64,000 nt of DNA, from positions 248,001-312,000 of the forward strand of contig OZ237743.1 in assembly GCA_965178125.1 (NCBI GenBank), read 5' to 3'. Below the pieces are notes generated by a model. It saw only the letters and a program-made list of their open reading frames with translations, had not been told where the DNA came from and made no database searches. Both the position numbers and the translations under genes were made by a program. Shown here in pieces: positions 6,601 to 56,147 of the stretch; position 1 is the stretch's first letter, and each line of letters opens with the position of its first letter. The DNA is from Bilabrum cf. latius (lineage: Eukaryota).

Positions 6601-7686
6601 GCTGGGGCTGGGGCATCCACGTGCGCTAGAGTCGAGTCAGCCGTGGATAACGCGTGCAGGGCCTCAGATGACGCTGCCGCTGAACTCCAGTTCCACTCTG
6701 CTCCTCGATCCGGGTAAGAATGCACAGCGTATTGTGGGACAGCAGGGATGCCGGCTGTTGGGTGCCGCAGCGGCTGTCCGCGCGGCGTGGCAGTCCCGCT
6801 TGGAGTGGACAACGGGGCACTGCTGCTGCTCCCGCTGCTCGCTGGCCGTGGTGCTGCTAGCATTTCTGCCGGGCCCCTCGCACTAGGTGCGATCACACCT
6901 GTCTGGTTTCTAGCTTGCATTTCCGCATCTGATGACGCGGGTGCCACTGGGCTTCGAACCTCCTGATTGGCCTGTGTGCAGTCGTAATCTGCACGTCCCG
7001 GCAACTTCGGTCTATGCCAGGTGCCTGCTAGTGGGGCGGGGCTGCTGGCTGAGCTCGTCGTTGGATGTGGTGGTGCAGCAGCACGCCCACGACTCCAGCT
7101 TATGGACGGTGTCGGCTAAGGTCTGCGCTGCAGAGCGCCTTGAGGGTGCCCACTTGCCAAGTTGAATGCGCGGCGAAGGCCGTCTTCCGAAAGCGTGACC
7201 ATCTGTGCCGGCGGGGCCTCCCAGCTCTCGTGAATCTTCCTTAGTCTTTCAATAGGGTGGCCAGAGCGCCGCGCTGACTGTTCCGGGGATAATCTGAGTT
7301 CACACACGATCACGTCGAAACCGGCGCTCTTGCCGACGGACCAGTAGTGCCGAAAGTGCTCTACCAACGCATTCACCTGGTCTACAACGACAAAGGTCGT
7401 TCGATGCTGCTCCACGGCTTTGGCAAACGCCCTCTGTGCTGCCCTCCGATACGCCTCCAACATGCTAGCATCAAACTTAAACACCCAGCGGGACTCCTCA
7501 GCTGAGCCACCTTTCTGCTCCACCAAGAAATAGTCGTTCAAACTGTGCAGCATTGGAGAAACAAAGCCTCTTGATATAGCCACTTGAAGCAGCAACTTGC
7601 CAAGCTCGGTCTTCCCTGCTCCAGGAAGGCCACGCAATATCACGCAAAGCGGCCGCCGGTTACCATCGGTCCCAAACATCTTCATG
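624..7686 (-). CDS. YLPM1/ZAP3-like P-loop nucleoside-kinase domain at the N-terminus followed by ~2100 aa of low-complexity sequence; the true 5' end may include further upstream exons
   Basis: Motifs VILRGLPGAGKT, SLNDYF, VVVDQVN..HF..YW....SAGFDV and WEAPP resemble the YLPM1 kinase-like domain. ORFs ending at 7116, 6573, 5847, 4359, 4050, 3579, 3252, 2499, 1653 and 1374 share one frame, separated only by TAG; the frame ends at TGA 624-626. Confidence 0.75.
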
Positions 7687-8179
7687 CTTGCGAATATCAG
7701 CGGTCTGCTGGATCTGCCGTCTACGTATAGATATATACGATCAATTTGTAATCTGGTCAGCAACACATGCCTAAAGTCTGCAAGATTGTTCTGCTGTTGC
7801 AGTTCTGGAAATAAACCAGAGATACTCAATAACTGCACGGAACAAATACGAACATGTTTTTCTCCTGGTGGGGGAGATGGACCCTTTATGGGCCCTAGCC
7901 ATAGCACATAGTGCTTTGGCTTTATTCTCCCTTCCTATGGGCTGGGAGAAGCCGACGCCTGGATTGGCATTGTCGGCTGCACCGGGTTCGGTGCCTGTGC
8001 TGGTTGAGCAGCACAGCCCTGTTCAGGCGTCCTGGAGTGTCGTCTGCGCAGCGGAAGAAGAGCTAAATAGCTCTCGATTCCACTCGAGATCCCTGCGGGG
8101 GCTGCGAAGTGGTTATGGCCCGTTCGCCGATGTGCGCGGGAAGGTCTACGACCAAACGGTCGGGAAGGTGTTTACCGCC

Positions 8180-8484
8180 TCCGACGCCCGTACTGTCATT
8201 TCAGCGCGGGATTTCTTCCCTTGTGGAGAAAATGGGTTCTTTGAAACCCTAGCCTTAGCAATTAACGCTTTGGCGCCGATCTACCTGCCGGAGAGCAGGG
8301 CGATTGGTTTCTGCACCGTTGGTGCCACCTATTCCGACGCCCGTACTGTCATTTCAGCACGGGATTTCTCCCCTTGTGGAGAAAATGGGTTCTTTGAAGC
8401 CCTAGTCTTAGCATCTAATGCTTTGGCGCCGATCTACCTGCCGGAGAGCAGGGCGATTGGTTTCTGCACCGTTGGTGCCACCTA
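8180..8484. repeat. Tandem duplication of a 153-bp unit (2 near-identical copies)
   Basis: tccgacgcccgtactgtcatttcagc...ggtgccaccta starts at 8180 and again at 8333. Confidence 0.9.
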
Positions 8485-9014
8485 TATCAGCCGGGCCCGG
8501 GAACACCGAGCTCGGGAAGACTCCCAGGAGGGGGAGCCTCGGAACCATTCACGTATTAACGCTGACAGTTCCAGAGACGAGCATGATTGTGTGCATGCTC
8601 GACCCTCAGAGGGATCGCGAGTCCGGACGATCCTGGAAGTGACGTCGGAGGCTGGAGGGGCACTCCGTGGTGGGTCTGGACCGCGCATTATGCCGGGCCC
8701 ACGCAGTATGCCTGTGTGTCTACGGATATCCGAAATAAAGGCTCCGGGACTGCTGCGAAGGAGGGCTTGAAGGCGACAAAGGGAGGTCCCAACATCAGGG
8801 CCGGTATATGGGGGGCCTTTGGTCTGAAAGGGTCGGGGGTCTTGTAGTCCTCTTATGAGGGCTCCTACCGCTGCAGGTGATCACCTGAGATATGGTGCAT
8901 CTGTGGCGGGTTCGGTAACTTAACCCAACAATGTATTTCTGTATTTCTGTATTTTTTCTCGCACGGGAAGAACAGAGCATCTGAAGCCTTAGTTAGGAGC
9001 CACCGCCAAAGTAA

Positions 9015-13212: not shown

Positions 13213-13329
13213 TTACAAAGATAAAATTTCGATACAAGTTATAAATGCCTTCAATCCAGTTCGGTTCCGGTCTGCGTGCAGCAGCTGGGGATGACGTTGG
13301 CCACACATTGCCTTCGCCTCGCTAAATTG

Positions 13330-14890
13330 ATGTCGTCTCGCCGACCGCGTGCTGGTTCTAGGTAGACTGGAAGTCTGAAACATGCACAAGAGCCCTCAAA
13401 CGGGGCACGTAAGGAGGCATTCGCGCACTCTGCTGAGCCCGACGAGACGGAGCAGAAGCTGAATCCACGCACCTTGTCTGATGATATGGAGTTCTTCGGG
13501 ACTCCGGGGGCAATCATTGTGACATTTTTAATCCATGCAACGGTTCTAGTGATCGCGTGGGGGCACGATGATGCGTTCTGGCCGGATGCTAGCAAGCTTG
13601 CGAGCTTGCTCTCATCCAAGGGATGGATCGAGCTATCAAGTCTGGTCACGCTTGAGGCAGCAACCGCCTTGCTCGGCTGGTGGGTATTCCACGTATTCCT
13701 CCACCTCATACTCCCTGCTCAAATTGCTGATGGAACGGAGCTCCGAAATGGCGAGCGACTACCGTACCGCCTAAACGGTGAGTGCCCTGAATCGTGCGCT
13801 TATCCTGGTGTGCAGCGCCCGAATCTGCACCCTATCTTGATCGAGTCGTAAATTACTCACTCGCCTTCCCGCAGCTACTCTGTGTTACTTTGTGTCGATT
13901 GGTGCTGCAATCGCCGCACACTCAGGCGGTCTGCTCGAGTTGCGATGGATTGCGGCTAACTTCCCGAGTCTCGCTGTCACGGCGATGGTTTTGTGCGACA
14001 TTGCTTCTATCGGCTTGTACCTATGGTCCTTCCGGCCGACCTCTGACGGCAGGCCGGTCATGCTCGCCCTCGCCGGCAACTCTGGCTCGGTGTGGTACGA
14101 CTTGTTCATCGGGCGGGAGCTCAACCCCCGGATTCAGCTGCCCCTGCTGCCTGCCCTGGACCTCAAGTTCTTCAACGAGCTAAGGCCTGGATTGCACGGG
14201 TGGATCCTCATCAACCTGTCCTTCCTCCTGGTGCACATGGACAACGTGGCCAAGCAGACGGAGCACGACACCCCGTTTGGACTGGGCATTACAGGGGAGA
14301 TGCTATTGGTGCAGGTCTTCCAGGCGTATTACGTGCTCGATTCCGCCATCAGCGAGCGGGCCATCCTGACGACCATGGACATCACCACCGATGGGTTCGG
14401 CCTCATGCTGTGCTTCGGGGATCTGGCTTGGCTCCCATTCACCTACTCCCTGCAGGCAGCATACCTTGCCACCAACCCGCTGCACTTCCCATTCTGGGCA
14501 ATCGCGCTGGTACTACTGGCCAGCTGCATCGGCCTTTACATCTTTAGAGGTGCCAACGGTCAGAAGGACCTGTTCCGTCGCAACCCCAGCCACCCAGATG
14601 TGAGAGACCTCGAGACGATTCAGACCGCAAGGGGGACGCGTCTAATCGCGAGCAGCTGGTGGGGACTATCGCGGCACATCAACTACTTCGGAGACTGGAT
14701 CCTGGCCCTGGCATGGTGCCTGTGCACGGGATTCAGCGCGCCAATGACGTACTTCTACGCGGGCTATTTCGCGGTGCTCCTTGTCCACCGGGAGAGGCGG
14801 GACGACCACGCGTGCCACAAAAAGTACAAGGGGGCATGGGACGAGTACAGGAGGAGGGTGCCGTGGAGAATCGTCCCGGGCATCTACTGA
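13330..14890 (+). CDS. ERG24: Delta14-sterol reductase (ERG24/LBR/TM7SF2 family); intron 13778-13874; alternative in-frame ATG at 13291
   Basis: Motifs LNPRT..MEFFG, GRELNPRI, DLKFFNELRPG, TTMDITTDGFGLMLCFGDLAWLPFTYSLQA, WWGLSRHINYFGD and KKY..AWDEY..RVPWRIVPGIY. One in-frame TAG (13363) in the N-terminal leader; TGA stop. Confidence 0.92.
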
Positions 14891-15172
14891 GAGAGGTGTC
14901 GTGCGGCAGCTGTAGGAGTAGGAGTGGAAATGACAAGCCTTGGGATCCGATGGCTCACGCGGGTCAGCCATTCGGCACCCGCGCGCCCGCCCTGGCTGGT
15001 TGGGCTGGCTGGATTCAGTTTTCAGCTCTGTGAAATATGAACTCAAAGACGGGTCTAAATATTTGTGCTGGATTTTTGTGCGGTCCGTCGGTGACTAGTC
15101 TACCGGTGGGCCAGATGTGACAATCGAAATCATGGTGGCATGTGCGCGTGACGAAGGAACACCGACTGCACA

Positions 15173-22688: not shown

Positions 22689-24086
22689 TCAGCGACCTTC
22701 AGACTGGCCAGTAGCCTCGCCAGCGCTATCAGCCTTCTCTGCCAGCTAGATGGCAAGCCCATCTACGTGGGGCTGCTGCAGAGATGGGTCTACGCTGCTC
22801 AGCGCCTTGCCTTCGGACTTGTCGGCGATGTAGCCGTGCTGAATGGCGGCGCGAGCCATGTCGGTGAGCGAATCGAGTCCATGCGACAGACGCAAGCCGA
22901 GCACCTTTTCAGTGGTGGTCGCATCGACCTTGGGGAAATGCCCGATCATGCTCTGGGCCACTGCTGCGTCCTTTATGCAGCACGCGAGGCAGTTGATCAG
23001 CCACGTGGGCGTCAGTCCAGTTGACACGGAATACCCCTTGTCGTTGAACTCCGCCGCAAGCACTTTCTGCATGTCGAGAAGCGAGGCAGCGCTGTGAGTG
23101 GCAAGAAACCTACGGTTGCTCGCCTATGGGGTTGCGAGAGCGAGCAGGTGCGCGCGAGCGACGTCGCGCACGTCGACGAACGGGAAGCCGCCATCCACCA
23201 TGGAGTTTCCGGCCATCATCTGCTCTAGCAGAGTCATGGATGTGAACGAGCCGATGTCGCCAAGCACTGGCCCCGTGATGAATCCCGGGTGGATTGTCAC
23301 CAGGTCGAACTTGGCTGGGCCGTCTGCTGCGTACGCGCCTTCTCCCCTGGCGATCTTCCACGCTTCTTGTTCGGCGAGGATCTTGGACTTGACATAGTGC
23401 TCCATGTCAGGCCCATCCGGATCGGAGAAGTCCGCTTCGGTCCAGGTCTTAATCGAGATGCTCCCGTGGCCGTACATGATCGCCGCCACCGACGACGTCA
23501 GCACGACTCGCTTCACGGTGCCAGCGCGATTGGCGGCCTAAAGCACGGATACTGTGCCCTGTACAGCGGGTTTGATGACTCTGCGATGGACAGCAACGAT
23601 GTGAGACGCGGAAGTGGGAAGTAATAGCGGCGCTTGCCTTCTGTCAATACCGTGCCGCGCTAGCAGCAGCAGTTCTGTCGGTTGAAACGGAATCCGTCGC
23701 CCAGAAGTATGCTATCGGATTTTTCCAGAAAATGACTCTCACTCATCTGCGTTGTCCGTGATTATGACGGGGCTTGCTATGTGCATGACATAGTCGCAGC
23801 CGCTCGCTACACGGACCCAGTCCACCACAGGCTACATCAGGTCTGCCTGCACCAGCTCCAGCCGACCTTCCGCACCTGGAAGAGCGCGAAGGAGCCTACA
23901 CTTCTTAGTTTTTAACGCGCGCGCGGTTCCTCTCACGCGGTAGCCTGCAGCGAGCAGAGTGCTGACCGCCCACGAGCCGACGAACCCTGTCGCACCAGTC
24001 ACGAGGACGAGCGGGAGCTTTGCCACCGTGGTCACACGGCTCGGAGTCGCTGCAACTTTATCGATGTTTGGTGAAACGGACGCCAT
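22689..24086 (-). CDS. NAD(P)-dependent extended SDR (dihydroflavonol reductase / aldehyde reductase-like); intron 23581-23742
   Basis: Motifs VLVTGATGFVG, GCDYVMHIASP, IKPAVQGT, VKRVVLTSS, YVKSK and FVDVRDVARAH. In-frame TAGs at 23832, 23538, 23124, 22746; TGA at 22689-22691. Confidence 0.9.
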
Positions 24087-24258
24087 ATCTTGCTTCTCTT
24101 TGCTATTTTGAGCAATGAAAGTGTGAGTATCACGTTTTGAGGATCTCCCGCAAATAGGAGAGTTTGCTTTTGCGGGCAAACCAACACTTCCGGTTTATAT
24201 GCGATTCAACGTGACCTATACTTGGCAAAACATCGTATCCCGTTTAAACAACATACAA

Positions 24259-28691: not shown

Positions 28692-29186
28692 ATGCGCACG
28701 CTGGCATCGCTTTGTCTGCTCACAGTGCTGTTGCCATTAGCTATGGGTGACTCGCCATCGAGAGCCCACCGAGTGCGCCGCAGGACTCGGACAACGGAGC
28801 TCAAGAAGTCTCCGTCGGTTATTGATCCCAAGCTCGACGCAATGCCGTCAGACGCCAGTGAGAGATTATTGGTCTCCTTCACTAGCTCGCTTGTCATACG
28901 AGCTTATACATCGTATCCTTGCGCCGACTTCGCTCTCATCGCAGACGATGCGGGCCCCAACGCCGCGCGAACCCACCCGCCGTTGTGCAGCAAGTGTGAA
29001 AGATCAGTTGCATCGCGCTTTCCTTTAAGATTTACTACTGAACTTGAATGTCACAGCACCAGGCACGTACACCCTGACGTGCATCCTAAGTTGCCAAAAT
29101 GCACTGCCCGCCGATTCAACTCCCGCACTAATGACCTGCGTACTAGTAGAGCGCACTCTGTATGCCCCCCTGCCTCGGCTGCTTGA
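28692..29186 (+). CDS. Possible small secreted protein (signal-peptide-like start, CxxC); 3' end uncertain
   Basis: MRTLASLCLLTVLLPLAMG hydrophobic leader; possible in-frame intron 28858-28944. The ORF end overlaps the convergent LRR gene. Confidence 0.3.
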   Translation: MRTLASLCLLTVLLPLAMGDSPSRAHRVRRRTRTTELKKSPSVIDPKLDAMPSDASERLLVSFTSSLVIRAYTSYPCADFALIADDAGPNAARTHPPLCSKCERSVASRFPLRFTTELECHSTRHVHPDVHPKLPKCTARRFNSRTNDLRTSRAHSVCPPASAA

Positions 29187-30632
29187 GCTGCGTCTAGCTA
29201 TTTACCTGACACGAGCCCTTTCCGTTCTGCCCCACCTGCCATCACCCCGAGCCGCAGTCGCTTCGCCAACTCTAGAGGCCTGCCCTCTGCTGCAGCTCGC
29301 CACACTAGCCCCGCATCCCGGTGAGCCTGCGCAGCAGTCCTATGTCGTACCAAGGCCCACAGCCTGGACTGCCTGGACTAGTAGTGCTGCAGCCTGGTCA
29401 GCATGAGAGGTACAGTTCTTGCATACTTACCAGGAACACATGAAGTGCGCCAGTCGTAGAACACTATGCGGGGATTGGCCACTACAGCATCCAGGTTCCG
29501 GTCGTGCTGGCGACTGAATTCAGCCTCATACCTCCAGGAATTGAGCCCGCTGTATCCGACGGATATCGACAGCAGCGCCCTGTTCCGCCTGATTGCAGCC
29601 CACAGCAGACATAACGGAAGTCGTGTTTTCTCCGGTATCATGTCATAGAACAGCATCAGGTGCCTGATACTCACGTTCTCACACACGATCCTTTCCACCT
29701 GTGCACCGAGGGCGTCGCTGGCTTCTGGCGACTTGGATATGAATGAAAGCAGCACCTGCCTCAGTGCCCGATGCGCCACCAGAGTATCAGCCCACGCCAC
29801 CAGCTATTCTTTGTTCACCACGCAGTCTCCCGTTGACAAATACCGAAGGCTTCTGTTGGTCAGCATGCCCTTTGCTATCGGGGCATTGCGCCGATACAGG
29901 TTTCTGTAGGCTGCCCCCAGAGTGATTCCAGAACGAGCATCCCACCCGAGCATACCCATCAGACTCAGCGCATACAAGCTGCACCGCGAGTCTCCTAGCA
30001 CCTACCCGAGCGACTCGAACAGATCCTGAGGGGCTCCTTCTAAGCACTGCCTACTACTGCTGCTCTGCAAGATGAGAGCCTCAAGGCGATTCGACCTTCC
30101 TGAATGCAGCATCGACGGAGCCAGTGCTGCCATGGCGCCTGGCTCCCACCTGCAGTCCCCCAGATGCAAGCAAGAGAGATGATGACCCTCAACGTCCAAA
30201 CATACCATCTCGCAAAGCAACCTGGCTGTCGGAACATCGATCGTCTCGTCAACCAGCCGCAGCGACTTCAACCGGATGCCATCCGAGGGCAGCAGCGCCA
30301 GTAACTGCCTGAAGCTTGCCATTCCAGATCGGTGCGGCATTGTGGCACTTGCATACCCCTGCCTGACCGCCCACAGGAACTGCCAAACCAGCGTGCACTC
30401 CGGCGCGATATCGTTCCTGCCTTTCTTGTATGTCTCGTGCATACCGTCAGAAGAAACCTGCTAAACTTACAAGATATATTTTAGTTTCGATGAAGAACTT
30501 GACCCCAACAAAAATGCGGTGCCGGGGGCACTCGGAAACTACTAGTGTTGGACAGTGTTTGCTCCTCACGATCGAGGTGATAGCCCTATACGGGGCACGA
30601 TAGACACCTGGCACAAGTTTCTCTTGGAGCAT
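29051..30632 (-). CDS. RNI-like/LRR-like protein, paralog A (short first exon plus intron)
   Basis: LRR-like segments LKSLRLVD, LSCLHLGDC, LEALILQ. In-frame TAGs at 30002, 29804, 29378, 29198; TGA 29051-29053. Colinear with paralog B. Confidence 0.7.
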
Positions 30633-31600: not shown

Positions 31601-33194
31601 TCACGACACCAAGCACGAGAACGTGGGCATACCTTCTGTCAGGCCACGATCAATCGCCCTTCGGTTCACCTCTCGCGCAACTGACCGGCGCACTAGCAGC
31701 ACGCATTCCCTATGCCCGCCTGCTTTGGCCGCTTGCCCCGCGTCTAGCAAGCTGCCTGACACGAGACCTTGCCGTTCCGCGCCACCTGCCATCACCCCGA
31801 GCCGCAGTCGCTTCGCCAACTCTAGGGGCCTGCCCCCTGCTGCAGCTCGCCACACTAGCCTCGCATCCCGTTGAGCTTGCGCAGCAGTCCTATGTTGTAC
31901 CAAGGCCCACAGCCTTGACTGCCTGGATTGGTACTGCTTTAATCGAGGTAACATAACGGGCTCGACTCTCTCGTTCTTTTGGGTCGAGGCCACCGTGCAC
32001 CAGTCGTAATGTATAATACGGGGATTGGCCACTACGGCATCCAGATTGCGGTCGTTCTGCGGGACGTAGTACTATGGACTATAGTAGAATTCGTCTCCAA
32101 TACATCCGACCAATATCGACAGCAGTGCCCTGTTCCGCCTGATGGCAGCCCGCAGCAGGTGCAACGGAGGTGGCACTGGATCCCATCCCCGCTCCATGTC
32201 GTACAACAATATCAGGTGCCTGATGCTCACGTTCTCACGCACGATCCTTGCCACTGGTGCACCGAGCGCAATGCGGGCTTCGTTCGTCACAGGATGAAAG
32301 GACACAAGAAGCTGCCGCAAGGAATAGCTCGTGGCCAGAGCATCGGCCCACGCGACCAGCTGCTCTGTGTTCACTATACACTCGCCAGTCGACAAATACC
32401 GAATGCTTGTGTTGCTAAGCATGCCCCTGGCCACCAAGGCATTGCGCCGATACATGCAAGTCCAGTCCACGCCTTCAACCGGACCATAGGGGTGACTCCA
32501 TCCGAGCATGCCCACCAGGCTCAGCGCATACAAGCTGCACCACGAGTCTCCTAGCACCTATCCAAGCGACTCGAACAGATCCTGAGGGGCTCCTTTCACC
32601 GATGGCTCGCCAGTAGTGCTCTGCAAGAGGAGTGCTTCCAATCGATTCGACATCCCCGAGTGCAGCATCGACGGAGCCAGTGCTGCCATGGCGCCTGGCT
32701 TCCACCTGCAGTCCTCCAGATGCAAGCAAGACAAGCCATGACCCTCAACGTCCAAACATACCATCTCGCAAAGCAGCTTGGCGGCCGAAACATCGATCGT
32801 CTCATCCACAAGACGCAGCGACTTCAACCGGATGCCATCCAAAGGCAGCAGCGCCAGCAGCTGCTTGAAGCCTGCTATGCCCGATCCGGAAGGCATTGTG
32901 GCGCTGGAGTATCCCTGCTTGATCGCCCACAGGAATTGCTGAAGAGATTCACATTCGGGGGCAAAATCGTTCCTCCCTTTCTTGTAGCTTTCATGCATGC
33001 CGTCAGATGAAACCTGCATCGCATCACAACGTAAAGTGTCTTATAGAACAATAAATTGAACCCCAGCAAACATGCGGTGCAGCGGGCACACTTTGCAAAC
33101 AGTTCGCCCAGCGCCTCACGATCGAGGTGATGCTCCTATACGGGCTTCGATAGGTATCAGGTGTTGGCCATTCATATACCATGTAGTCAGCCAT
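31601..33194 (-). CDS. RNI-like/LRR-like protein, paralog B
   Basis: Highly similar to paralog A along its length, with the same intron position (SITSI|VSSDG). In-frame TAGs at 32558 and 32072; TGA 31601-31603. Confidence 0.7.
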
Positions 33195-42329: not shown

Positions 42330-43892
42330 TCAAAGACAACCTCGCGCATGCCTACTGAGATCCCCTGCCCGCCCGAATGACTTGCCGCACTCCATGCACT
42401 CGTGCTTGCGCTCGCCCAGATGCACAGTGGACATGTGCGTCCTGAGACTGCCTGCCCGCCCGAATGACTTGCCGCACTCCATGCACTCGTGCTTGCGCTC
42501 GCCCAGATGCACAGTCCTCGTGTGCGTCCTGAGACTGCCTGCCCGCCCGAATGACTTGCCGCACTCCATGCACTCGTGCTTGCGCTCGCCCATGTGCACG
42601 GTCCTCATGTGCGTCCTGAGATTGCCTGCCCGCCCGAATGACTTGCCGCACACCATGCACTCGTGCTTGCGCTCGCCCAGATGCACAGTCCTCGTGTGCG
42701 TCCTGAGATTGCCTGCCCGCCCGAATGACTTGCCGCACACCATGCACTCGTGCTTGCGCTCGCCCAGATGCACAGTCCTCATGTGCGTCCTGAGACTGCC
42801 TGCCTCCCCGAATGACTTGCCGCACACCATGCACTCGTGCTTGCGCTCGCCCAGATGCACAGTCCTCATGTGCGTCCTGAGGTGGCCTGCCTCCCCGAAT
42901 GACTTGCCGCACACCATGCACTCGTGCTTGCGCTCGCCCAGATGCACACTCCTCATGTGCCTTCTGAGTGAGCCGGCCTCCCCGAATGACTTGCCGCACA
43001 CCATGCACTCGTGCTTGCGCTCGCCCAGATGCACAGTCCTCGTGTGCGTCCTGAGACTGCCTGCATGCCCGAATGACTTGCCGCACACCATGCACTCGTG
43101 CTTGCGCTCGCCCAGATGCACAGTCCTCGTGTGCGTCCTGAGGTGGCCTGCCTCCCCGAATGACTTGCCGCACTCCATGCACTCGTGCTTGCGCTCGCCC
43201 AGATGCACAGTCCTCATGTGCGTCCTGAGACTGCCTGCCCGCCCGAATGACTTGCCGCACACACTGCACTCGTGCTTGCGCTCGCCCAGATGCACAGTCC
43301 TCATGTGCGTCCTGAGATTGCCTGCCTGTCCGAATGACTTGCCGCACACACTGCACTCGTGCTTGCGCTCGCCCAGATGCACAGTCCTCATGTGCCTACT
43401 GAGATCGCCTGCCTGTCCGAACGCCTGCCCGCACACGCTGCACCGATGTTCTACCCCGATTGTGCCTGCCTGTCCACGCCGTCTCTTCGCCCTCGATCCG
43501 CTCTGGCTGTCTGCTGACCTCGCCTATGCCTGCCTGCCTCGCTTCTGGCCCACAGAGGCATCGGTGCCGCCGCTTGCACCTACCCCTGAGCTTGACTGCA
43601 TTGAAGATTGCTCTTCTTGCGGCAACATTGCGCTGCTGCTGGAGTGTCCCGACGCCACGATGGACGTGGGAACAGCTTCGGCTCGATCGCTGGCTTGATC
43701 TCGGGTCCTACCTTTCCCACCTGCCTCTCGCCTGCCCCACTAGCGACTGCTGGTCAATGATAGCGATGCAGCAATTGTGCTCATGCGGCGGTCGGGAACC
43801 TCGACATCGCTTCCACCAGAGTCGCTGTCGCTTGAGTCGCTGCTGACGAGATCGATCACCTCCCCTGAGCATGCACCTGCTGCTTGCTCCAT
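42330..43892 (-). CDS. C2H2 zinc-finger protein with 13 tandem fingers and an acidic N-terminus (SIM-like EVIDLVSSD)
   Basis: Repeated HECxxCGKSFGxAGxLRTHMRTVH units. The N-terminus from ATG 43892 joins the array via TAG 43740 and TAG 43524; TGA 42330-42332. Confidence 0.9.
42350..43440. repeat. 84-bp coding minisatellite, ~13 copies (zinc-finger array)
   Basis: Near-identical units ccgaatgacttgccgcac...gcactcgtgcttgcgctcgcccagatgcacagtcctc with a period of 84. Confidence 0.95.
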
Positions 43893-44264: not shown

Positions 44265-44832
44265 TCACGGAGAAGCACCGTTCTCGCTCGCTGCCCCTTC
44301 TTCGCCAGACGCCTTCTCCACCACCTCCCTGCGCGCCTGCTTCTGCTGCTGCTGCTGTTGCGCCCCGGCCCGCTTCTCCCTCCACGCCTGGCCCTTGATC
44401 CGGGCCTCGTCAGACCGCTTCAGCTGGGCCGCCAGCGCATCCACGGAGAAGGCCTCCTTGAAGTCCATCGCCATCGACTGGGAATCCACCCCACCCCCCC
44501 ACCGGAAGCCCCTCGATGATCAGCCACCCATTCTGCCCCTCCTCCTCGGGGATGTCCTCCCCAGTCGCGATGGCCTGCATGGCAGACATCCACCCGCCCC
44601 CAGACCGCAGGTCACCGGACCACCACGCCAGGAACTCCGCCTTGGAGATCATCCTGTCCCTGTTCTTGTCCATCTCCATGATGGCGGCCTCCAGCTCCGC
44701 GGGGCTCAGCTTGCTGCCTAGCTGCACGCACAGGTCGGCCAGCTCGGTCGTGTCTAGATCGCCGCCGCCGTCGAGGTCCGCAGCATCGAGTGTCAAGGTG
44801 AGCGCGGAGGAGGCGGCTGCTGCTGCTGCCAT
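44265..44832 (-). CDS. EF-hand pair protein with a charged C-terminal tail; frame discontinuity near 44490-44520
   Basis: EF-hand loops DLDGGGDLDTTEL and DKNRDRMISKAEF(LAWW). The coding-like tail (MDFKEAFS...QQQQQQKQ) lies in a different frame and ends at TGA 44265. Confidence 0.65.
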
Positions 44833-45394
44833 TGCGGGCGGTGCGCTGGGTGACAGCTTCCATTGCGGGCGGTGCGCTGGGTGACAGGTGATGCCTCACT
44901 AGAGTTGAGTGAGTGAGCGTGGCTGCTCACTGCGGTCACCCGCAGGGAGGGTCCTGCCTGCGGGGGGATGCGGCTGGGACTGGGACTGGGAGGGGTCCGC
45001 GTTCCAGCCCTCTCCCGCAGTGATGCCACCACCCCCTGTGAGTGCCCCGGCCTGCGAGATGGAGGCAGCCGCGTAGGAGCTGTACGGCCACAGCTCCAGC
45101 AAGCCAGTGGAAAGTCATGTAGCGAGGCCCGGCTAGCTAGTTTGCCTATCTTCCAGGCAAATGCCAATCGGATGGTTGACGAGCTTTCCTGTCGGTGCCG
45201 GTCCAAAGGTTTCTTCGCAGGTACTATTGTATACCCATATATTGGTTATTGATGCCATTTCAAATTGCATTGTGCAACTATAACTGTATTACAACACCCA
45301 GAAAGCAGGCACTCACTACCCCCCGCCCCCGGGCAGTCACCGGAAACGGCTCGCATGGGTCGTCCTACAGTCGTACAATAAGTCCTTGACCTAT

Positions 45395-48300
45395 TCACTT
45401 GATAGTAGTCTCATCGGAAATTTGCAAGGCATCTCCAAGGTCGCCCTTCGTGCGAGCAGCAGCTGCCTGCCTGCGCATTCTCCGCATCATCATGTCGCGG
45501 CGCACGCGGAACACCGGCAGCACCCTCCTGGCCCAGCGCTGAATAGCAAGAATCCGAGAGTACTTTGTGTTCCGCTGCTGCACGTTCGTCACGCAGAACA
45601 GCAGGTCATCTGCTCCGATTGCTGCATCGTACGGCGGGCTCGTGTACACGTACGGCAGGGCCCTTCGCTTTGGTACCCACCAGTTGTTGGGCAACCAACG
45701 CATCATGCGGGGCCCCAGCTGGCCATACCGCCCACCTGGCAGCGGCCGGTTGCTTGCCTAGGGGCAAGACTCGTTGCGGCGTCGCCTTCTGCTCTCGTCC
45801 CGGGCGGATCCACCCGAGCCTATCGCACCGCTGGCTCTAGTGCTGCCAATGCCACTGCCACTGCCACTGCCACCTCCTTCCGGTGACATGCCACCAGAAC
45901 GAAGCAAGGCGCGCACAGCAGCTACTGCTCGCCGCTTAGCCACAAATCTTACAGATACATTCTGCAGCCTTGCTTCCGCTCTTGCTGTTTGGCTGCCCAG
46001 CGATCTCGCACCTGAGCCACTGGAGTGCACGCCCTGACTCATGCGAGTGAGGGTTCGCCCGTGCCTGAAGATCGCTACCGGAGTCAGCCCGTACTCTTGC
46101 TGCATCCAGGCACACACGGCCCCATAGCGAGGCATGGGCCACGCCCACGGGCCCCACTCGTCTCCAGACAGAGCAGCTGCGGCCACGCCGTGAGGGGTCG
46201 CGCCTCCTGCAGGCGGGGGCCCGTGCGGGTCGGCCGACCTCGCGTTCTTTAGGATGCGGTCGGCTTCCTTGACGGCCTGCGCGTAGGCAGCCTCCCTAAT
46301 TTTCTGGCTGATCAGCACGGAGGGGTCATACCTGGGACGCTGGGCCACCTGGAAGCCGTACCTCTTCTGCACCATTCCGCACGGCCCGACGCAACGGCGC
46401 GCGGCGTCATACGGTAGAGACACCTGTACAACCCGCCCGTCCACATCAGACAGCAGCCCAGTGATCACCTGCGGCTTCAGAGGGTCGAACAGGGCCGATG
46501 CAGTCAGGGCTTCCGCGATGGTTGACGTGTACACGGAGCCGTTGGCCACCTCGGGCTCGACCGCAGCAAAGGAGGCTTCCGTGGAGCCAACGGTGGGAAA
46601 TAGCTCGGCAGAGAGCTGCTTTCCCTTGTGGGCCTCTACCAGTTCTTCGTCAATACGAACCAGCTCGCAGGCGAGCTGGCCCTTGCGGCCATCGCGCAGC
46701 CCTCTACTCGCCAACTCAGCGCGTGCCCTGCTGTCTGAGGACTAAGTGTTGGTCATTGCCGCCTCTGTCGCCTCCTCCAAGACAGCCTCAGCATCCCGAA
46801 GTGCCTGTTGCTTTGCCCTGTGGCGAGTGCGATGCACCGACGACAGGGATGCAAACGGATCGCAGGTCGAGCGAAGCATGCAGCATGCGAACCCAATGCA
46901 GCATACGAGCCCAAACAGAGAAGCAAACACGTCGCAGCACTCGTCGTAGTCCACCATCCACGCGTACTCTCCGCAGCAGCAGTTACAAGAATTTTCTTCT
47001 TCTTCTTTGCTGGACTCGTCTTCCTTGTCGCCATTGTTGCCGTCTTCAGAGCCCGTGGGATCCCCTTGCGACTCCTTGCCTCTCATAGCAGTACCACTCC
47101 CGTTGCTCTTTCGACCGCCATCAGTCGCACCAGTTCTGGACGCTGGGCCATCCAATACGAAGGGGGGCGGGTGCTGCGCCCTGGAGAGCGCCTGGCTTTG
47201 CTACCCATTCAAGTCGAACAGCACCCTTGAGACCTCGACTGGGTCCTCCCTCATCGAAAACAGCTGCTGCTGGTGGGTAGGCCGCTTCGGGACGGGAGCA
47301 GGACTGCTGCGAGCCGCTGATGAGTTGACCACAATTGGCCCCGCATCGATCGCGGCTGCAACGTGCGCGATGGAGCTTGCGTGCGGGCTGGAGGCAGGTG
47401 TCGCGAGTGTGGGCAATTCCCTATGGCCCTCTGCATCGATCACTTCCTCCATTGCTTTGCTGAAGTGCTTGCCATCGTCGATCTCAAGCTCCTCCTCTCC
47501 CACGTCGGGCTCGTCCATCGTGCATGACTGCGCATCGTCGTCGTCAATCTCTTGGCCAGCCGGCTCAAGGTGCTAATGCTGCTGGCCACTGCTCACCTCC
47601 ATCGCGGCCGATCCTCTGCTCTGCGGTCCACGAGATGTCACCACAGAACCGTGATAGACCTCCCCGTGCGCCCCGGAAATCATGGAGTCGTGCACCTCCA
47701 TGGCTGCGTCGTGGTCCGTGGAGCGCTACAGCAGTCGGGCATTCGGCTCTAGGTCTCGGAGAAATCGTCTGCCTGCCCTGCGAAGGCAATTTGCGATGGA
47801 ACCACAATTGCGCACCTCGTCTACGATGTGAGTAGCGGCAGGTGCGTGCTCAAAGAAATGGGCGCTGTGAGGTGCAGACATGCCCGCGTCTCTCATGATT
47901 GACAGCTTCTGCTTTGCTAGCCAGCGCACCTCCAAGATTGGCCTCATCCTGATGCGAGACCAATACAAAAGCTGCTAAATGTCCAGACTGGGCACAGAGC
48001 CCGTTCTCTCGACCAGCCTAGAGGCACTGTGGTAGTCCAAGCGACCGGGCACTACGGCCAGTTGCCGCTCATCGCGGGCCGTGCGAGCCACATTGATGGC
48101 GTCGTGCATCGCAGCCAGTACGCTGTCTTCGCTTAGCGGCGCCGATCCGGACTCGGAATGAGTGCGCACAAGCTAACCCAGCATCGTACTTGTGCCTGCA
48201 TGCTGTACTTTTGTGTCCAGACCCTTGCCTGAAGAGCGCCTGGCCGATGGGCTGCTGAGGACACGGCGGGGCTGCCCGGCCCGTCGCCGCGACGCCGGTC

Positions 48301-51300
48301 CGCTGTGCATTGGCGCCACTGCAGCATACTTAGAGTCCACGCTTGCCTGGGGTTCATGCATCTTAATGAACCCCTGGATCGACTCGTCGTGAAGCCGTGC
48401 TGCCGTAGCAACGGCAAGAGAAGGGATGCGCGATTGCGGGGGCACTGCCAGGCCCGTGCTGCTGGTCCTGTGGCCTGGCAGACCGCTCAACATTTGCTGC
48501 CTGGCATAGTGCAGGAACGGCAGCTCAAACATAGTCAGTTGTGCCCGCACAAGCCACTCAACGGCCTCCCTCTCCCCAATCTGCGTGGCATGCATCGACC
48601 TGGCTCTCGACACGGCCCCTGGAGCGGACAGGGCATGTGCCGTGGCAATCTACTCGCGTGACCTGGCAGCTGTCTTGGAGGTGTACTTCGACTTCGTCTT
48701 CCAAAACACGAGCATTTGGCGCAGCAGATCCACCGCAGGCCAGTGATGCGCGCGACTCTGCGTGGTTCCTACTGCGTCAAGCTTGCCCGCGGATGTCTTC
48801 GGCTGCTGCAGCAGAAAGGCCAGAAGCGGTGTCTGCCCCCTCGCCGGGCGGCTCGCGTTCGCTGCTGATTTAGGGGGGAATGCGCGGGGCACTGGTGCAG
48901 CACCGGGGTCACTCGCTCCAATGCTGCTACTCCCATCTCCGTTGGCATGACTGGATAATTGCAGACCAGCCTTGGTGGCAGCATCCGCGCGCATGGCCTT
49001 CAGAATCCTCTCACCTTCAGGCACCTCCGTACCCGACACCTCCAGAGAGGCACCCACAGTCCAACGGGGCGGATTGGCACGAAGGTGCTGCGCAAATCGA
49101 ATTTCAGACGCAGCAGTGACTGCCAGCAGCGCGGATCCCATCCTCTGGGTGGTGACGCGGGACAGTGCTGGGCGGCAGTCGTACGAGCTGGATTGTCCTT
49201 GCTTTCGGCTCCCGTGCACCGGTGCTCTGGCATGGGCCCGTATCCTGCTGGCGGACTCGTCCGCCCTCTTTGCCCTCGAGGTCGCTCCAACCTGCCGCGT
49301 GCTGCTGAGGAAGCGAACACTCTCCGTGCGGGTCAGCTCCATGATGGCAGGCGGGGCATTGGCGCCGAGAATGGCCCGAATCGTCTGCAAGCAATGCAGC
49401 GCAAGTGCATCGCTGGCACTGTCTGCGTTCCTCTACAGCGCCTCGATGTGAGACTGGCGCTCCTGCGCAGAGCTTTGACCGCCATCATCGTCGGCACCGT
49501 CGGCCCCGCCATCTTTGGGCGCGTCACCGCCGATCGGACCGGTCGCAGCGGCCACTTGTATGGATCTGGCTCGCGCTCCCGGATCGGCCAGAATCAGCAC
49601 CCTCGCTGCTGTGTGGACCCCCGCCCTCCCGAGATCCATTGGGTCGTACGGCGTCCCGTGCACAAAATACAGGGACGGTCGCGGCGTCACCGGCAGGATA
49701 CTCGGCATCTTTTGTCTGCGGCTCTGCCTGCGGCTTGGCGGGGACAACTGCGCTCTTCCCACGGCCGAGCCAGGCGGTGACATGGCTCCCTGCACGTCGT
49801 CCCCGACGCCGTACCCGCCCTCATTCTCCTGTCCTTCGCTGTTCAGATAACCGGCATTGAGCCCCGTCGTGTCAATCTGGGCCGCAGTGTAGCCAGCGGT
49901 GTGCTCATGCATGGACGGCGCCTTGCCAGCTGTCGGTCTTCCTGACCACCACCTGTTGGGGCGATGCATCCGCTGCCCGAAGGAAGGCGTGAATTGAGCC
50001 CACTCTCTCCTCGTTGGAGCCCTGGGATGCAGCACCACGATGGCAGGCACGTGAATGGAGCTCATCATTGCCCGCACGATCACGTGAAGGGCGGCATACG
50101 GAGTCGTTTCGGAGCACAGCACTGCCACGTGCCCGCCGTGCATGAGCAGGGCGGCGGGTGGGGACACGCTCACCGGGTCGTTCTCGACGTCAGCGCAGAC
50201 GCTATACCGCAGAATCGATTCCGCCATTCGGGCACGGCGCTTTCCCACGCTCTGTCGCAGCCACTCGTGCGAGTTGGAGCCTGCGACTGCGGTGGGGCCC
50301 AGAGATCCGTGGGGCTTGTGACTGCCTCGTCCGCTTTTTCGTGGGCTCGCCCCAGCAGGTGATGACTTTGCCGGTTGCTGTTGCTACTACTGCTGCTGTT
50401 GCTGCTGCTCCCCTTGACTGCTCTTGCCCAGCCCTCCAGCGGTGGCCTCCTCACCACCAACTCCAGCCGCCGTCAATAGCCCCTCGCCGCCCATTCCTGC
50501 GTTCTGCTGCGATGCATCGTCTCGCGCTGCTTTTCCCTCGGCGTCGATCTCGTCCGCTTGCTGCTCTTGCTATTCGGGTTCTTGGGACACTTCCGAGCTC
50601 TCATCAGCATCCAAATCCTCGTCACCGGAGTTCTCTTCATCGCTGTTGTTACTGTCGCTGCCTTGCAGGTCGGCACGCTCGATCGATCCACCTGCTAGAC
50701 TGCCTTCAGGGCTCTCATCGTCATCAGTTGCACCCCCACCATCCTCACCGTCCTCGTCTTTCCCATAATGATCCGAGTCAACACCCTGATTGGAGGTCTA
50801 GAACTGCGACTGGCTGGCAGCGAAGTCGCTGGTGGCAGCGCCCCCAAGCCCGGAGACTTGTCCTGACACCCCTCCCGCGCTCCCCCCAGCCTTCCCACCC
50901 AGCCCGCTGCTGCCCATCCCACCCACCACCTCTTCGGCTGCGCCAAGCGTCAGCCGATCAGTGACAGAGCCCAGCGCCATCAGCTGCTCCTCCAGCTCAG
51001 CTGCCTTTGCCTCCACCTCGCGCTCCAAGTCGCCGTCGGTTGTTGCCGATCCGTCCGAAATCTCGCTGCCGCTGTCAGAGTCATCGATTGGTACGATCTC
51101 CACCGGTCCACCACGCCCTTTTTCGTCACCACCACTGCCCCCTGACCCCACAGCCAGCCGCTTCTGACTGCTCAAATGAGCTTGCGAGGATGACGGGCGG
51201 TCAGCTGCACCGCCACCAGCTTCCCCACCCGGTGGCGAATCGTCGTCGGCCGAGCGACCCTCCCCAATGCTAGAGTCTGCCACCTCTTGCACGCCCTCAC

Positions 51301-54300
51301 CCGCGAGGTAGTCAGGCACGATGGCGCTGCCGCCCCCGGTGAGGGCACCATCCTAAGGCCGCATGACAGACGGCGGGCTCGGACCGCCCCTTCCAGCTGC
51401 TGAGTCAGCAGCACCCAAGCGAGAAGCGCCTACGGCACGCCGGATCGCACCAGCTCCAATCCCAGCTGGCTGCCTCTTGCTGCCTTTGTTGCCCTTAGGG
51501 ACCATTAGGGCCATAACGAAGCCAAGGCTAATTCCGGTCTTTGTCACCCGCCTGCTGAGACGCCGCAGCGAGGCTTTGCCGCCCTTGTTGGAAGGCAGTG
51601 CAGGCGGCTGTACCCGCTGTTTGCTCAAAGGCTGCGGCGGTTGTGCACTCGAATCCTCTTCGCGTTTCTTCCTGGCTGGCGTACTGGGGCTGGCCTTGCC
51701 GTCGATCTCGCCATTCCCGACACTTGCACTTGAAGCTTCATCCTCACCGTGGACTGCCGCGGTTTCCGCTCCGTCGTGCTCCTCGTCTTCTTCGATACTC
51801 TACTGCGCAGCACCAGCATCTTCAGCTGGTGCAGCAGCTGCTTGTCGCGCGCTGGAGAGAAGTATTTCCGTGCTGTCCACATGGGCAGACTCGTCCGCGG
51901 CATTTTCCGCGACCTGCAGCCCGAATCGATGCATTGCATCCCCGAGCGCAAGAGCCTGCCCCACCGCCTCGAGTTCCGCCTTCGTGTGCGGGGACATCGG
52001 CTCTGTCACACTCGCGTTCTCTTGCTCCTGCTGCAAAACACGAGATACAGCCGGATGCGTTCCATCCGGACGCGGGTCTTTGCCCACGCTGCCACCGCTT
52101 CCGTGGTCATTGCCACTCTATGCCTTGGCGCTGGATGATGCAGCCCCGCCGCCCGCGGTCTTTGCCTTGGCAGGCACCTGCACCGGAATGCGTATGCTAG
52201 ACGGCACGCTCCCGCTTGCACCCGCGCCCTGCCCGGTTTGGCTGGCAGATGTCTTGGCGCCGCCGCTTGCAGCAGCACGCAGGCCGTTGCGCGCGCCCCG
52301 CAGCCCCGGTGGACGGAAGCCGAGGGCTGCCCATGGGTCGAGCCACTTGATAAATTCCTGCTGGTCGGCAGCTATACCAATCACCAGTGAGGACGGCTGC
52401 AGAACTGCCTTTGGCATGCCCACGGCTAGGAAGTACCGTGAGTCCTTTCCGGCTGCTGCTTGCATGCCCGCAGGAGCAGACTCCGGCTCGCCAGACCCCC
52501 CTGCCCCGCTAGCCGCAAACATGAACTGTGCCCCTTGCAGCAGCCAGTTGGCCTGGTGGCCTGCTCCCTGCGCGCCCTTGCTCCCTGGATTCCCATCCCG
52601 CGCCATTCCGCTCGTCCTTGCCTGGCTCCGTGCCAGCATCTGGCGCATCGCTGATTCCACACGGTTGAAATCAACGCCGGGAGCCGTGTCCCGGCAGTCC
52701 TACACTGCGGCTCGCACCAGCTGCTGCAGGTCCGTGTTGGACGCCTGGGCCTGCAACTAAAGCAGCCTGCTGAGCGCCTCACATGTCGTGGTGACCTCCC
52801 TGGCACCTTTGCGCAATTCACGCAGGGCTTTGTGCCTCCACCTGCGCCTGGCGGCCCCGCCCTCCGGTGGACCGTCTTCCACCTCCTCACTTGCTTGCTT
52901 GCGCAACTCATCCAGGCCAGGCTCCTCCTCCCCTTCACAGGCTAGCCGTACGGCACACGGCCCGCCCCCGGCAACGAACACCTCAACGGCCCGCTCGAGG
53001 CGGCGACTGACCGTTGCTGCGAGCACAGCAAAGTGGGCCGCGTGAGCGGCAGCGACCTGGCTGGGCTTCGCCTTCGTCCGCGGGATTACAGCTCCGATGA
53101 TCTGCACCGTGCCGTTGGAAGCAGTGCCAACGGCTGCAGAAAGGTCCCCGACGGTCATCTGACGAGCAATGGCAAAACTGGGCGCCGCGGACGAGTAAAT
53201 TTCCTGGGAGGCCCCAGATTTGTACTCCATGGCCCATGGGCGATCCATGGCAGTGATGGAGTCTGCCCGCGACACGATGAGATTCGTGAGCAGGGCGGGA
53301 AGACCGGGCACTCCCACGGAGCAACCCAGCATGGAGTAGTCGATCGAGTCGATCGGCACGCAGTTGTTCGGCGAAACACCGCAGCCCTGCGCGAATTTGA
53401 GGGAGCTGATCGTTCGAAGCATTACGACGAATCGAGGGATGGTCGGCCGGTGCTGCTGCCTGGAGCCAAATGCCTCCTCGGCAACGTCGGCCATGCCGTC
53501 ATCATCCTCATCGTCGTCATCGTACTGCAGTCCCGTGCCGAGTCTTCGCCTATCCTCTGGGCCCTGATGCCGCCCGCAGCATGCACAGCAGAAAACGTAG
53601 TCTAGACAGACTCGCATAGGCTTAAACATGCCGCCTATTTCGGAGCAAAAGGCTCCAGCCTGCGAGTACACCCGATTCATCGTCGTGTCACTCTGCTACA
53701 AGCCCGCCCGAATGGCATCTTCCTGCAGCAGGTAGTGTCGCATGCGGAGAAGAGCCAGGAGGTTCGAGCGGTCCTCGGCCGGACCATCTTCGGCGGCACG
53801 GGAGGGCAGCACCACAACCTGCTCTGCGTGCGCCACGGCAGCCCTGTCGACGTCGTTCTCTGAGGTGGCTGCGCCCACGATGAGGAAGAGCCTGTCCTTG
53901 TAGTGCTCGGCATCGGTGTGCTTGCCCTTGCCACGGAGAAAATCAGCGACGTCCGAGGAGGGGGTGCCTAAGAAGACCGTGTCTCGGTTGCAGTTGTCCG
54001 AGTTGTCGGGATGGTACAGCTCCCTCAGAAACTGCTTCAACTGCTCGAGCGAGGGGTCTCCCATGACCACGATGTGGGGCTGTGCTTCGGGCCCGCTGCT
54101 GTCCTCGGCGTCCTTGCCCCCGGCACCCCCTGGCCTGCAGTAGCAGCAGAGAGACGACTGGAGTGCCGAATCGTCGTCCTCCTGCAGCAGCGCGTTCTTC
54201 TGAATGGACGCCTTGGGCAAGTACACGGAGGGGCTGCTGGTCTTCAGGTTCAGGATAGCCACAAACTCGCTGGTGGCAGAGGCAAACGCCGCCAGCCCCA

Positions 54301-56147
54301 AGAAGATAAAGATAACGATCACAAGCCTCGAGACCGTGTGGTTGGGAGAGTAGTCGCCATAGCCCACGGTGGACAGCGATATGATCACGAAGTAGAACGA
54401 CACAAAAGGACTCAAGACCTCGTCCTCGCACCGGCCATCCACGGCCACAAACGAGTAGGCACCGTCATCGCACCGGTACAGAGTCCATAGGGCAGAGGGC
54501 ACGGTGGAGTCGATGGGGAGCTCACCGAGGAGTTCAAGCACGTACACGGTGGTGCTGATCACGTAGAGTGCGGCGAACGTGTTGATGCCAAAGGCCGTGA
54601 TCCTCCAAGTCGCTGACCGGACCCACTCCTCCCCTCGAGCCTCGGCCGCGGCCGCTGCGTTGCCGTCCAATGGGTCAAGCTCTACGGGGCTGTCCAGGCT
54701 CTCCGCATTCCGCAGCACATCCAGCTCCTCCTCGTCCTCCAGCGTGTAGCAGACCACGCAGCAGTATCGAGCCACGTATTGCACCCAACAGCTGCTAGGC
54801 CCTTCTCCAGAGCCGCCGTCTTCCTCGTTAGTTCCCTCTGCCTTGCCCCACTGCTGGGCGGGGCGACTCTTTGCAGAGCTCCCTGCGCCTGTTCCGCTCG
54901 GCGGTGCGGTTGCGACGAGCGAAGAGACTTGCTGCACGCCCGCCCCGACTGGCTTGGACGACGTGCCCGTGCCTACTGAGCTGGCTACCCCGCTGCTTAC
55001 GGTGCTGGGCTTGCCCTGCCCAGCGTCCGCCCGATCGGCCAGCTCTTTGGCCGCCTTGTCGGAGTCCCTTGCCACGCTGATGGCTTCCTGCTCGCGCCTG
55101 TCGGTCTTGATCGCCTCGTCGACCGCCTGCTTAGAGACGACGCAGCAGCAGGTGAGAGTTTCCGGGGGATGCACTCCGCACAGCCCCCCGCCGCACAGGC
55201 CGTCGTCTGTGGCCGGCGGCTTCCTGCGGATGATCTGCTCGATGACCGTGACGAGCTCGCGCATGTAGAGGGCTCTGACGAACGCGAGAGAGAACCATGT
55301 GCGACTCGCAACAAACGGAATGCTTCCACCATCGACCTCGTCCGGTGGGAGGCAGCGCTGGTCCGCGACGCTCCAGAGGCTCAAATCCCCGACGTCTTCG
55401 GGCCGATCTCCGGCAGCTTGGCCGATGTACTCGGTCGAATCCCCCGTCGAATCCAGCAAGGACCACGCGCACACGCTTTGGACCTGTATAAAGAAGCTTC
55501 CAATAGTGAGTACGTCGATAATAGTTCCAAGGTGCACCATTGCGTCGAGCTTCGGGCGCTCGGCGAATCGAACTATCAAATTCACTGCAAATAGGAGCAC
55601 GCACACAAAGTGCACCCACATCTCCCACTAGCTAATCGAAAATGAGCTACCCTCTACCGTTAGCAATACACAAACGACCTGCGGAAAAACCGAAGAGACA
55701 TGGAGAGAGCGGATAGCTGAGGGTTCAGAGGAAGATAGCTGGCAACTCAGCCGTAACTGATTGAATACTCACGGTCGAGGGAACATTCTGAAGCATGATG
55801 CGCAGAAGATTTGCCATGAGTGGATGCCTACTGTATGCCCCGGTCACTTGTTTCTGCAAAGCCTGGTCTGCTTCGCGTACGCATCGACATAAGGGTCGGC
55901 ATAGGCAGTCATAGAGTGCGACTGCTGGGATCAGCGCAGCAATCGCGAAGACAGTAACAAAAAGTTGATAAAATACAAAGTCCCACGAGAGCACGCAAGC
56001 AACGCCATCGAGCACTGAGTTTCCACAGAACTTGGCCAGAGGGTTGCTCTCAAAGAAAGACGGCAGATTCTCTTCAGCGCCAGGGATCCCACTCGATTCA
56101 TTGGACGGAAGATCTTCCAGCAGGTAAACTCGAAGAAAATCTTGCAT
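45395..56147 (-). CDS. Very large (~3550 aa) BK/Slo-type potassium channel with RCK domains and long insertions; intron 55679-55772
   Basis: Pore FYFVIISLSTVGYGDYSP, S4-like WFSLAFVRAL, RCK segments HIVVMG, FLRELYHP, VGVPGLPALLTNL, EYKSGASQEIY, GTPYDPMDLGRAGV and RALPYVYTSPP. One frame with 20 TAG and no TAA/TGA until TGA 45395-45397. Confidence 0.88.

Follow-up and report, generated by a model that had tools for sequence, protein, structure and literature searches.

Changes to the nuclear genetic code are rare. In the extracts of published work on which we draw here and below, codes that give UAG and UAA different meanings appear rarer still, and a few such lineages are named there (PMC11687900, PMC5304391). 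Reassignment of UAG alone to glutamine (Gln, Q) is reported in those extracts for the fornicate Iotanema spirale and for the ciliates Hartmannula sinica, Trochilia petrani and Protocruzia tuzeti, with UAA as the main terminator (PMC5304391, PMC11687900). Both UAA and UAG (UAR) are read as Gln, the code of table 6, in many ciliates, Hexamita, Streblomastix, Ulvophyceae and Amoeboaphelidium protococcarum (PMC11687900, PMC6299283), and ciliate Q-rich motifs are described as partly written with reassigned stop codons (PMC10942620). Codes that are ambiguous, each of the three stop codons occurring in frame, are attributed to Amoebophrya sp. ex Karlodinium veneficum, Blastocrithidia and Condylostoma (PMC12005148). 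Here we analyse a 64-kb stretch of DNA (contig OZ237743.1, positions 248,001 to 312,000; the window below) with a guanine and cytosine (GC) content of 61%, in which a giant potassium channel gene carries two consecutive in-frame TAG codons inside a run of Gln codons. It is very probable, judging from the sequence and its relatives, that UAG has changed from stop to Gln genome-wide in this GC-rich, intron-containing nuclear DNA, that UGA ends all genes seen, that UAA is not a sense codon and that the tract is translated as 11 Gln residues.

The polyglutamine tract and its channel gene

The tract and the two sites that resemble it lie in the frame of the channel gene, as follows.

50375..50407, minus strand: 11 Gln-type codons in a row, amino acids 1739-1749 numbered from the ATG at 55621
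50384..50389, minus strand: tandem in-frame TAGs, codons 50389-50387 and 50386-50384
50570..50572, minus strand: in-frame TAG within EPE[TAG]QEQQ
47573..47575, minus strand: in-frame TAG within GQQH[TAG]H

Read on the minus strand from 50410 to 50372, the sequence is GAG, then CAG CAG CAA CAG CAG CAG TAG TAG CAA CAG CAA, then CCG. This agrees with the original prediction, which had described a polyglutamine tract mixing three codons with two consecutive TAGs; the positions that it gave, 50387 and 50384, mark the lowest-numbered base of each TAG codon, and the two similar sites to which it had pointed were both found in the channel frame. Its placing of the tract upstream of a second RCK region is also borne out by the domain matches of the gene, which are listed here with its exons.

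55773..56147, minus strand: exon 1, 125 codons from ATG 56147, in frame with exon 2
55679..55772, minus strand: spliceosomal intron of 94 nucleotides (nt), GTGAGT...CCGCAG, missing from one contig of sequencing run X5 (joint between 55676 and 55771, cut +2)
45395..55678, minus strand: exon 2 of the potassium channel gene, with 3427 sense codons before its stop, TGA 45397-45395
First bases of the 20 in-frame TAG codons of exon 2, minus strand: 55630, 53698, 52759, 52702, 52120, 51802, 51355, 50800, 50572, 50389, 50386, 49435, 48652, 48175, 47977, 47728, 47575, 47203, 46744, 45760
54254..54454, minus strand: pore domain, Ion_trans_2 (Pfam, amino acids 390-456, E 8.7e-14), contains TVGYGD
53732..54082, minus strand: first RCK domain, Slo-like_RCK (Pfam, amino acids 514-630, E 6.1e-20)
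53171..53365, minus strand: BK_channel_a (Pfam, amino acids 753-817, E 6e-08)
49574..49678, minus strand: second Slo-like_RCK stretch, the RCK2 core (E 3.9e-07), downstream of the tract

With TAG taken as sense, the frame 55621..45395 on the minus strand is open for 3408 codons, containing 19 TAG and neither TAA nor TGA before its TGA stop, and the boundaries of this open reading frame (ORF) are unchanged under table 6. Under the standard code just 60 codons around the tract remain open in its frame and the largest piece of the gene has 641 amino acids; once TAG counts as sense, the open stretch extends to 3457 codons. The start of the gene lies upstream of the start of the ORF, at ATG 56147; in the joined frame there is one extra TAG before ATG 55621, in SIS[TAG]WEMW at 55630-55628, so that the full model has 3552 codons and 20 TAG. 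Its product is predicted to be a giant Slo/BK-like potassium channel of 3552 amino acids. The best solved matches are Slo1/BK channels (E 3.6e-15), to whose chains the pore aligns, and hydrophobic segments are seen in the translation of exon 1 and early exon 2. The order of TVGYGD pore, first RCK domain (RCK1), BK_channel_a and second RCK stretch (RCK2) is that of Slo1/BK, but the channel of the window is three times longer, with a low-complexity linker of about 900 amino acids between RCK1 and RCK2, in which the tract lies, and a tail of about 1300 amino acids without Pfam matches.

Four sequencing runs were compared with the window, all as contigs, which show neither strand nor level, and none of the listed runs containing the stretch is recorded as RNA. 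One contig of run X5 (5545 nt) agrees with 45323..50867 at every position, without a joint, and its start lies 72 nt on the far side of the TGA stop. Because this contig crosses the tract unbroken and unchanged, neither the tract nor any TAG from 50572 to 45760 is removed by splicing or altered by editing. The intron was kept in a contig of run X6 (54399..56000), and the relative in run X11 differs at 775 bases. The GT..AG orientation of the intron indicates transcription from the minus strand. As a separate observation, another X6 contig ends, at 48423, in 24 letters that match nothing in the window, which we take to be the template-switch or polymerase chain reaction primer of SMART-type complementary DNA kits.

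The residue at TAG and its alternatives

The codons of 13 genes (15,418 codons), chosen by Pfam, relatives or great length, were counted in ORFs defined with TAG read through, a definition that a TAG acting as a true stop would escape. In frame these genes hold 87 TAG, 0 TAA and 0 TGA, against 130 and 105 TAG, 37 and 39 TAA, and 237 and 277 TGA in their +1 and +2 frames, respectively. All 13 end in TGA and 12 contain TAG, which is distributed along their length much as Gln is (7, 8, 9, 11, 10, 11, 7, 10, 10 and 4 per decile). TGA is a real terminator, since the residue that directly precedes it matches the final position of the profile (432 of 432) in the gene of the sterol C-14 reductase ERG4/ERG24. 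Counted together, the Gln-type codons number 723, namely 457 CAG, 179 CAA and 87 TAG (12%). Gln is also the most enriched neighbour of TAG among the common residues (16 against 7.2 expected) and stands on both sides of it three times, against 0.15 expected, whereas glutamate (Glu) is depleted there (6 against 9.5). A likelihood based on neighbour profiles was non-discriminating for the residue at TAG, the top-ranking R, L, G and S lying within a few log units.

The more direct evidence comes from relatives. In the public protein collection the channel is present only in pieces that were called with the standard code. Nine distinct ortholog sites were well aligned over all sources (in the comparison with the metagenome locus L001, at least 11 of the 21 flanking columns identical), with Gln at eight and leucine (Leu) at one. 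Gln stands at TAG642 in a protein that is 98% identical (P0248), at TAG2063 in one at 91% (P0247), at TAG955 in one at 53% from a representative library (P0252), and at TAG2063 and TAG2324 in one at 64% (P0254). The last is the product of L001, so that the two count as one source. L001 itself (4048 nt, GC 63%, 63% amino acid identity) has one frame open for 1349 codons with 6 TAG, 0 TAA and 0 TGA, and thus seems to come from a relative that shares the code. Within the well-aligned blocks all six TAG sites of the window and L001 stand opposite CAG: TAG2063, 2324, 2549 and 2632 of the window are CAG in L001, and the two TAGs of RYGF[TAG]VA[TAG]RPRYD in L001 are CAG3091 and CAG3094 in the window. 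Elsewhere in L001, a tandem repeat at 3970..4048, ...GDSK[TAG]EGEGEGGEDSK[TAG]EGEGEGGEDS, has duplicated a unit that bears a TAG.

Several sites were dropped from this comparison: TAG1168 (R) and TAG1274 (P), whose alignments are gapped and 30-47% identical; TAG1608 and TAG1684, in a spurious second alignment of P0251 at 25% identity; and, with at most 6 of the 21 flanking columns identical, TAG2483, 2683, 2807, 2960 and 3288 of the window and codons 485, 878, 1327 and 1339 of L001. Seven of the relatives' fragments aligned to their last residue; three end just before a TAG of the window (955, 1608 and 2324), three before a CAG (488, 806 and 1075) and one before a TAC. This pattern is consistent with exchange between TAG and CAG, with the ends being either stops or contig ends.

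Within the window, a pair of tandem paralogs offers a further comparison.

29051..30442 and 31601..33019, minus strand: tandem paralogs without a Pfam match, 318 of 472 aligned columns identical

They have one conserved TAG in common and differ at the others; the sites pair as TAG/TAG, TAG/CAG, TAG/CAA and TAG/TTG, plus one pair in an unalignable stretch, and two of the three differing aligned sites are Gln. For the mitochondrial EF-Ts encoded in the window, the best 120 of 6157 matches were aligned, and the column of TAG128 contains Q 117 times, R twice and K once. The claim of the original prediction that TAG encodes Gln is therefore upheld by eight of nine ortholog sites, by the TAG/CAG and TAG/CAA pairs of the paralogs and by this Gln column.

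Some observations weigh against this assignment or limit it. The nine ortholog sites lie elsewhere than at the tandem TAGs themselves, which no sequence retrieved from a relative covers. TAG974 stands opposite Leu in P0252, the TAG/TTG pair of the paralogs is likewise Leu, and the EF-Ts column of TAG71 is dominated by Glu (E 112, D 6 and Q 2 in the same alignment). In the epimerase-like gene described below, the comparison with solved structures was uninformative, its two TAG sites falling in variable columns (N/N/K/N and S/S/S/A). Finally, run X5 is rated 'RNA? (probably DNA)', and the argument that it represents RNA rests on one spliced contig. Occasional replacement of a residue would account for this EF-Ts site and for both Leu pairings.

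What the tract itself contributes is more limited than had been proposed. Only two runs of at least four Gln-type codons occur in the 13 genes, and TAG is present in both, the second being CAG CAG CAG TAG CAG (QQQxQ) in the gene at 624..7970; the two TAGs of the 11-codon tract compare with about 1.3 expected at a 12% share. The tract had been presented as the most direct evidence that TAG encodes Gln, and it is indeed suggestive; the pairing of TAG with CAG in the codons of relatives, however, bears on the question more directly. Tandem TAGs had likewise been held to argue against leaky read-through; that conclusion stands, but 20 TAGs in the channel and 87 in 12 of the 13 genes weigh more. 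Taken alone, the tract makes a modest point: it shows that CAG-to-TAG transitions within Gln runs are silent in such an organism.

How else might these codons be explained? Under the standard code they would be nonsense mutations of pseudogenes or sites of rare leaky read-through, a view that can practically be dismissed: it has in its favour the formal presence of stop triplets and nothing more, whereas 87 TAG accompany no TAA or TGA in frame across 13 genes, mitochondrial EF-Ts included, with 20 in one frame of 3552 codons. TAG positions are, moreover, kept or swapped with CAG in relatives of 98% to 53% identity, and the frame-specific absence of TGA and TAA implies ongoing selection on the reading frame. 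That TAG encodes some other residue (Leu, Glu, tyrosine or lysine) and stands in a polyglutamine context by coincidence is very unlikely; the two Leu pairings and the Glu-dominated column of EF-Ts would speak for it, but Gln occupies eight of the nine well-aligned ortholog sites, six of them as exact TAG/CAG codon pairs in conserved blocks, and the neighbours of TAG are depleted in Glu and enriched in Gln. We give no more credence to the view that the tract is not translated as read here, being an intron, RNA-edited or part of an ORF of 200 codons on the opposite strand (50362..50964). GT-AG introns do exist in genes of the window, and the plus-strand ORF, which encodes alanine, valine and threonine over the tract, lies within a stop-free stretch of 272 codons. 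However, the original prediction would have been overturned by an intron or by translation in another frame, and neither was found: the X5 contig crosses the tract with no joint and no changed letter although a real intron of 94 nt is spliced in the same run, and no other frame or strand offers a better reading. On either side of the tract it is the minus-strand frame that Pfam domains and orthologs follow, the intron has minus-strand orientation, and long antisense ORFs are frequent in this GC-rich DNA; one of them, 13922..15133 on the minus strand (403 codons, 7 TAG), lies opposite ERG24 and is noise.

Two further alternatives accept UAG as Gln, and both are unlikely. One is that TAG still acts as a true stop in places. 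ORFs read through TAG would miss such stops, and the last decile of the genes is the poorest in TAG (4 against 7 to 11 elsewhere). Against this, those gene ends that could be checked agree with TGA: the end of ERG24 coincides with the end of its Pfam profile at TGA, EF-Ts and its closest homolog end no more than about a dozen residues apart, with no TAG in the tail of EF-Ts, and the X5 contig of the channel starts 72 nt after TGA. In contrast to ambiguous codes, moreover, no TGA or TAA occurs in frame. The other is that TAG and TAA both encode Gln, as in table 6, TAA being merely rare because the genome is GC-rich. No TAA stop is seen, all 13 genes ending in TGA, and the named best matches of ERG24 (about 50% identity) belong to chytrid fungi, the apusomonad Thecamonas and the amoebozoan Paramoeba, which is compatible with an aphelid-like lineage; in aphelids both TAG and TAA are reported to stand for Gln (PMC6299283). 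Yet none of the 15,418 in-frame codons is TAA, a triplet that occurs 37 and 39 times in the other two frames. Were TAA related to CAA as TAG is to CAG (87:457), the 179 CAA would imply about 34 of them; L001 adds 0 TAA in 1349 codons. The lack of TAA stops has a chance probability of about 0.02 to 0.18, depending on the background ratio of TAA to TGA (37:237 and 39:277 out of frame, 161:466 between genes), and is not significant. Since TAA is never in frame where about 34 would be expected if it were Gln, the code looks like one of TAG-only reassignment to Gln, of the table 15 type and not of table 6.

We return, then, to UAG as Gln. UAG is in frame, is transcribed unedited, is kept or swapped with CAG and CAA among relatives and is evenly spread along genes. 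The decoder would be a transfer RNA (tRNA), tRNA-Gln(CUA), which differs from tRNA-Gln(CUG) by a single change in the anticodon and pairs with UAG and not with UAA, and eRF1 would no longer terminate or compete at UAG. A tRNA-Gln(CUA) together with a change in eRF1 is given as the basis of UAG-to-Gln reassignment in other lineages (PMC5304391). The 64-kb window contains no tRNA genes and no Rfam matches at gathering score. In a CAG-rich run, C-to-T transitions would yield TAG without changing the protein, and TAG would accrue at its share of about 12% of Gln codons; because such transitions are silent, the tandem TAGs would be explained without any special role.

Other features of the window

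The remaining features that could be described are as follows.

8026..8880, minus strand: stretch lacking any Pfam match, in which a unit of about 40 codons, VAPTVQKPIALLSGRQIGAKAL..., occurs twice as a direct repeat
13213..14890, plus strand: gene for sterol C-14 reductase (ERG4/ERG24), split into two or more exons that use different frames
22689..24130, minus strand: dihydroflavonol/cinnamoyl-CoA reductase-like epimerase gene, an N-terminal exon with GATGFVGS and a second exon
42330..43892, minus strand: C2H2 zinc-finger gene, 13 near-identical tandem fingers with linker HLGERKHEC
44413..44895, minus strand: small EF-hand protein gene (EF-hand_7, E 1.4e-07), adjoining the channel gene downstream, without TAG and ending in TGA

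In the ERG4/ERG24 gene, profile positions 36-110 are matched in 13213..14043 and positions 114-432 in 13841..14887, with the frames switching near 13.8 kb; the large exon contains no TAG. The epimerase-like gene has an intron at about 23590..23740 that stays in frame by chance and holds a TGA. Its ORF 22692..23738 on the minus strand contains four TAGs, one of them inside the intron, and another TAG is found in the N-terminal exon. The repeats of the zinc-finger gene leave both other overlapping frames open for about 490-620 codons, and a single TAA in frame precedes its first ATG, where it probably belongs to the 5' leader.

Comparison with described variant codes

A tree of ERG24 made by a quick method, with 41 rows picked by hand from 120 listed matches (the named ones and the closest others), places the window and three relatives in a long-branched clade within an unresolved polytomy that also contains fungi, apusomonads, amoebozoans and green algae. 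Matches of ERG24 in the ESM Atlas narrow its origin no further than Eukaryota, Streptophyta being the commonest group. Viral contigs scanned with ERG24 and with an ankyrin-kinase protein yielded no relative. Literature word searches found no GC-rich non-ciliate eukaryote combining UAG-only reassignment to Gln with UGA stops, which is weak evidence of absence, the name of the organism not being searchable.

The organism adds one more lineage to those with a variant code of a kind already known. It is possible, though we regard it as doubtful, that it belongs to a new clade with its own variant: GC-rich, neither ciliate nor fornicate, with UAG alone reassigned to Gln, UGA practically always the stop and UAA unused as either sense or stop. 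Relatives in public data fall at about 98%, 83-91% and 53-65% protein identity and include the metagenome contig with in-frame TAG. TAA does behave in the window as an avoided or unassigned codon (0 in frame, 0 of 13 terminators), the part concerning stop usage being statistically insecure. If this broader reading were true, such an 'unassigned UAA' state would uncouple UAA from UAG, a condition unreported, within the extracts consulted, for the known UAG-only lineages, whose main stop is UAA. A GC-rich eukaryote with introns that reads UAG as Gln, ends its genes with UGA and avoids UAA would be an independent data point for the capture of UAG without UAA, and would show how release-factor specificity shifts. 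In practical terms, annotating this genome or those of its relatives with the standard code fragments most long genes, as has happened to the channel in the public protein collection. The whole genome merits a follow-up in view of the TAA result and of how deep the clade is.

Compared with the described systems, the window shares with ambiguous codes an in-frame UAG that is thought to be read as Gln, there by a suppressor tRNA, but it has no in-frame TGA or TAA; the Amoebophrya genome is also described as much more AT-rich than its relatives (PMC12005148), whereas the window has 61% GC, and on this ground Amoebophrya was rejected as the source. Like the Q-rich motifs of ciliates, its polyglutamine runs mix canonical Gln codons with reassigned stops. 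In the ciliate motifs, however, TAA and TAG dominate and CAG is rare, whereas in the window CAG dominates (457 CAG, 179 CAA and 87 TAG) and such runs are scarce. With the table 6 lineages it has in common UAG as Gln and UGA as terminator, differing from them in its 0 in-frame TAA where about 34 would be expected. The closest likeness is to the UAG-only lineages, in which, as here, UAG is a sense codon aligned with Gln, UAA is not sense and tRNA-Gln(CUA) is the expected decoder. Yet those lineages end their genes mainly in UAA, whereas the genes of the window end in TGA in 13 of 13 cases with no TAA stop seen. The window also differs from them in its GC content of 61%, its introns of an ordinary kind (GTGAGT...CAG, from about 94 nt upwards) and its mitochondrial EF-Ts, a combination suggesting that the genome is neither ciliate-like nor like that of an anaerobic fornicate.

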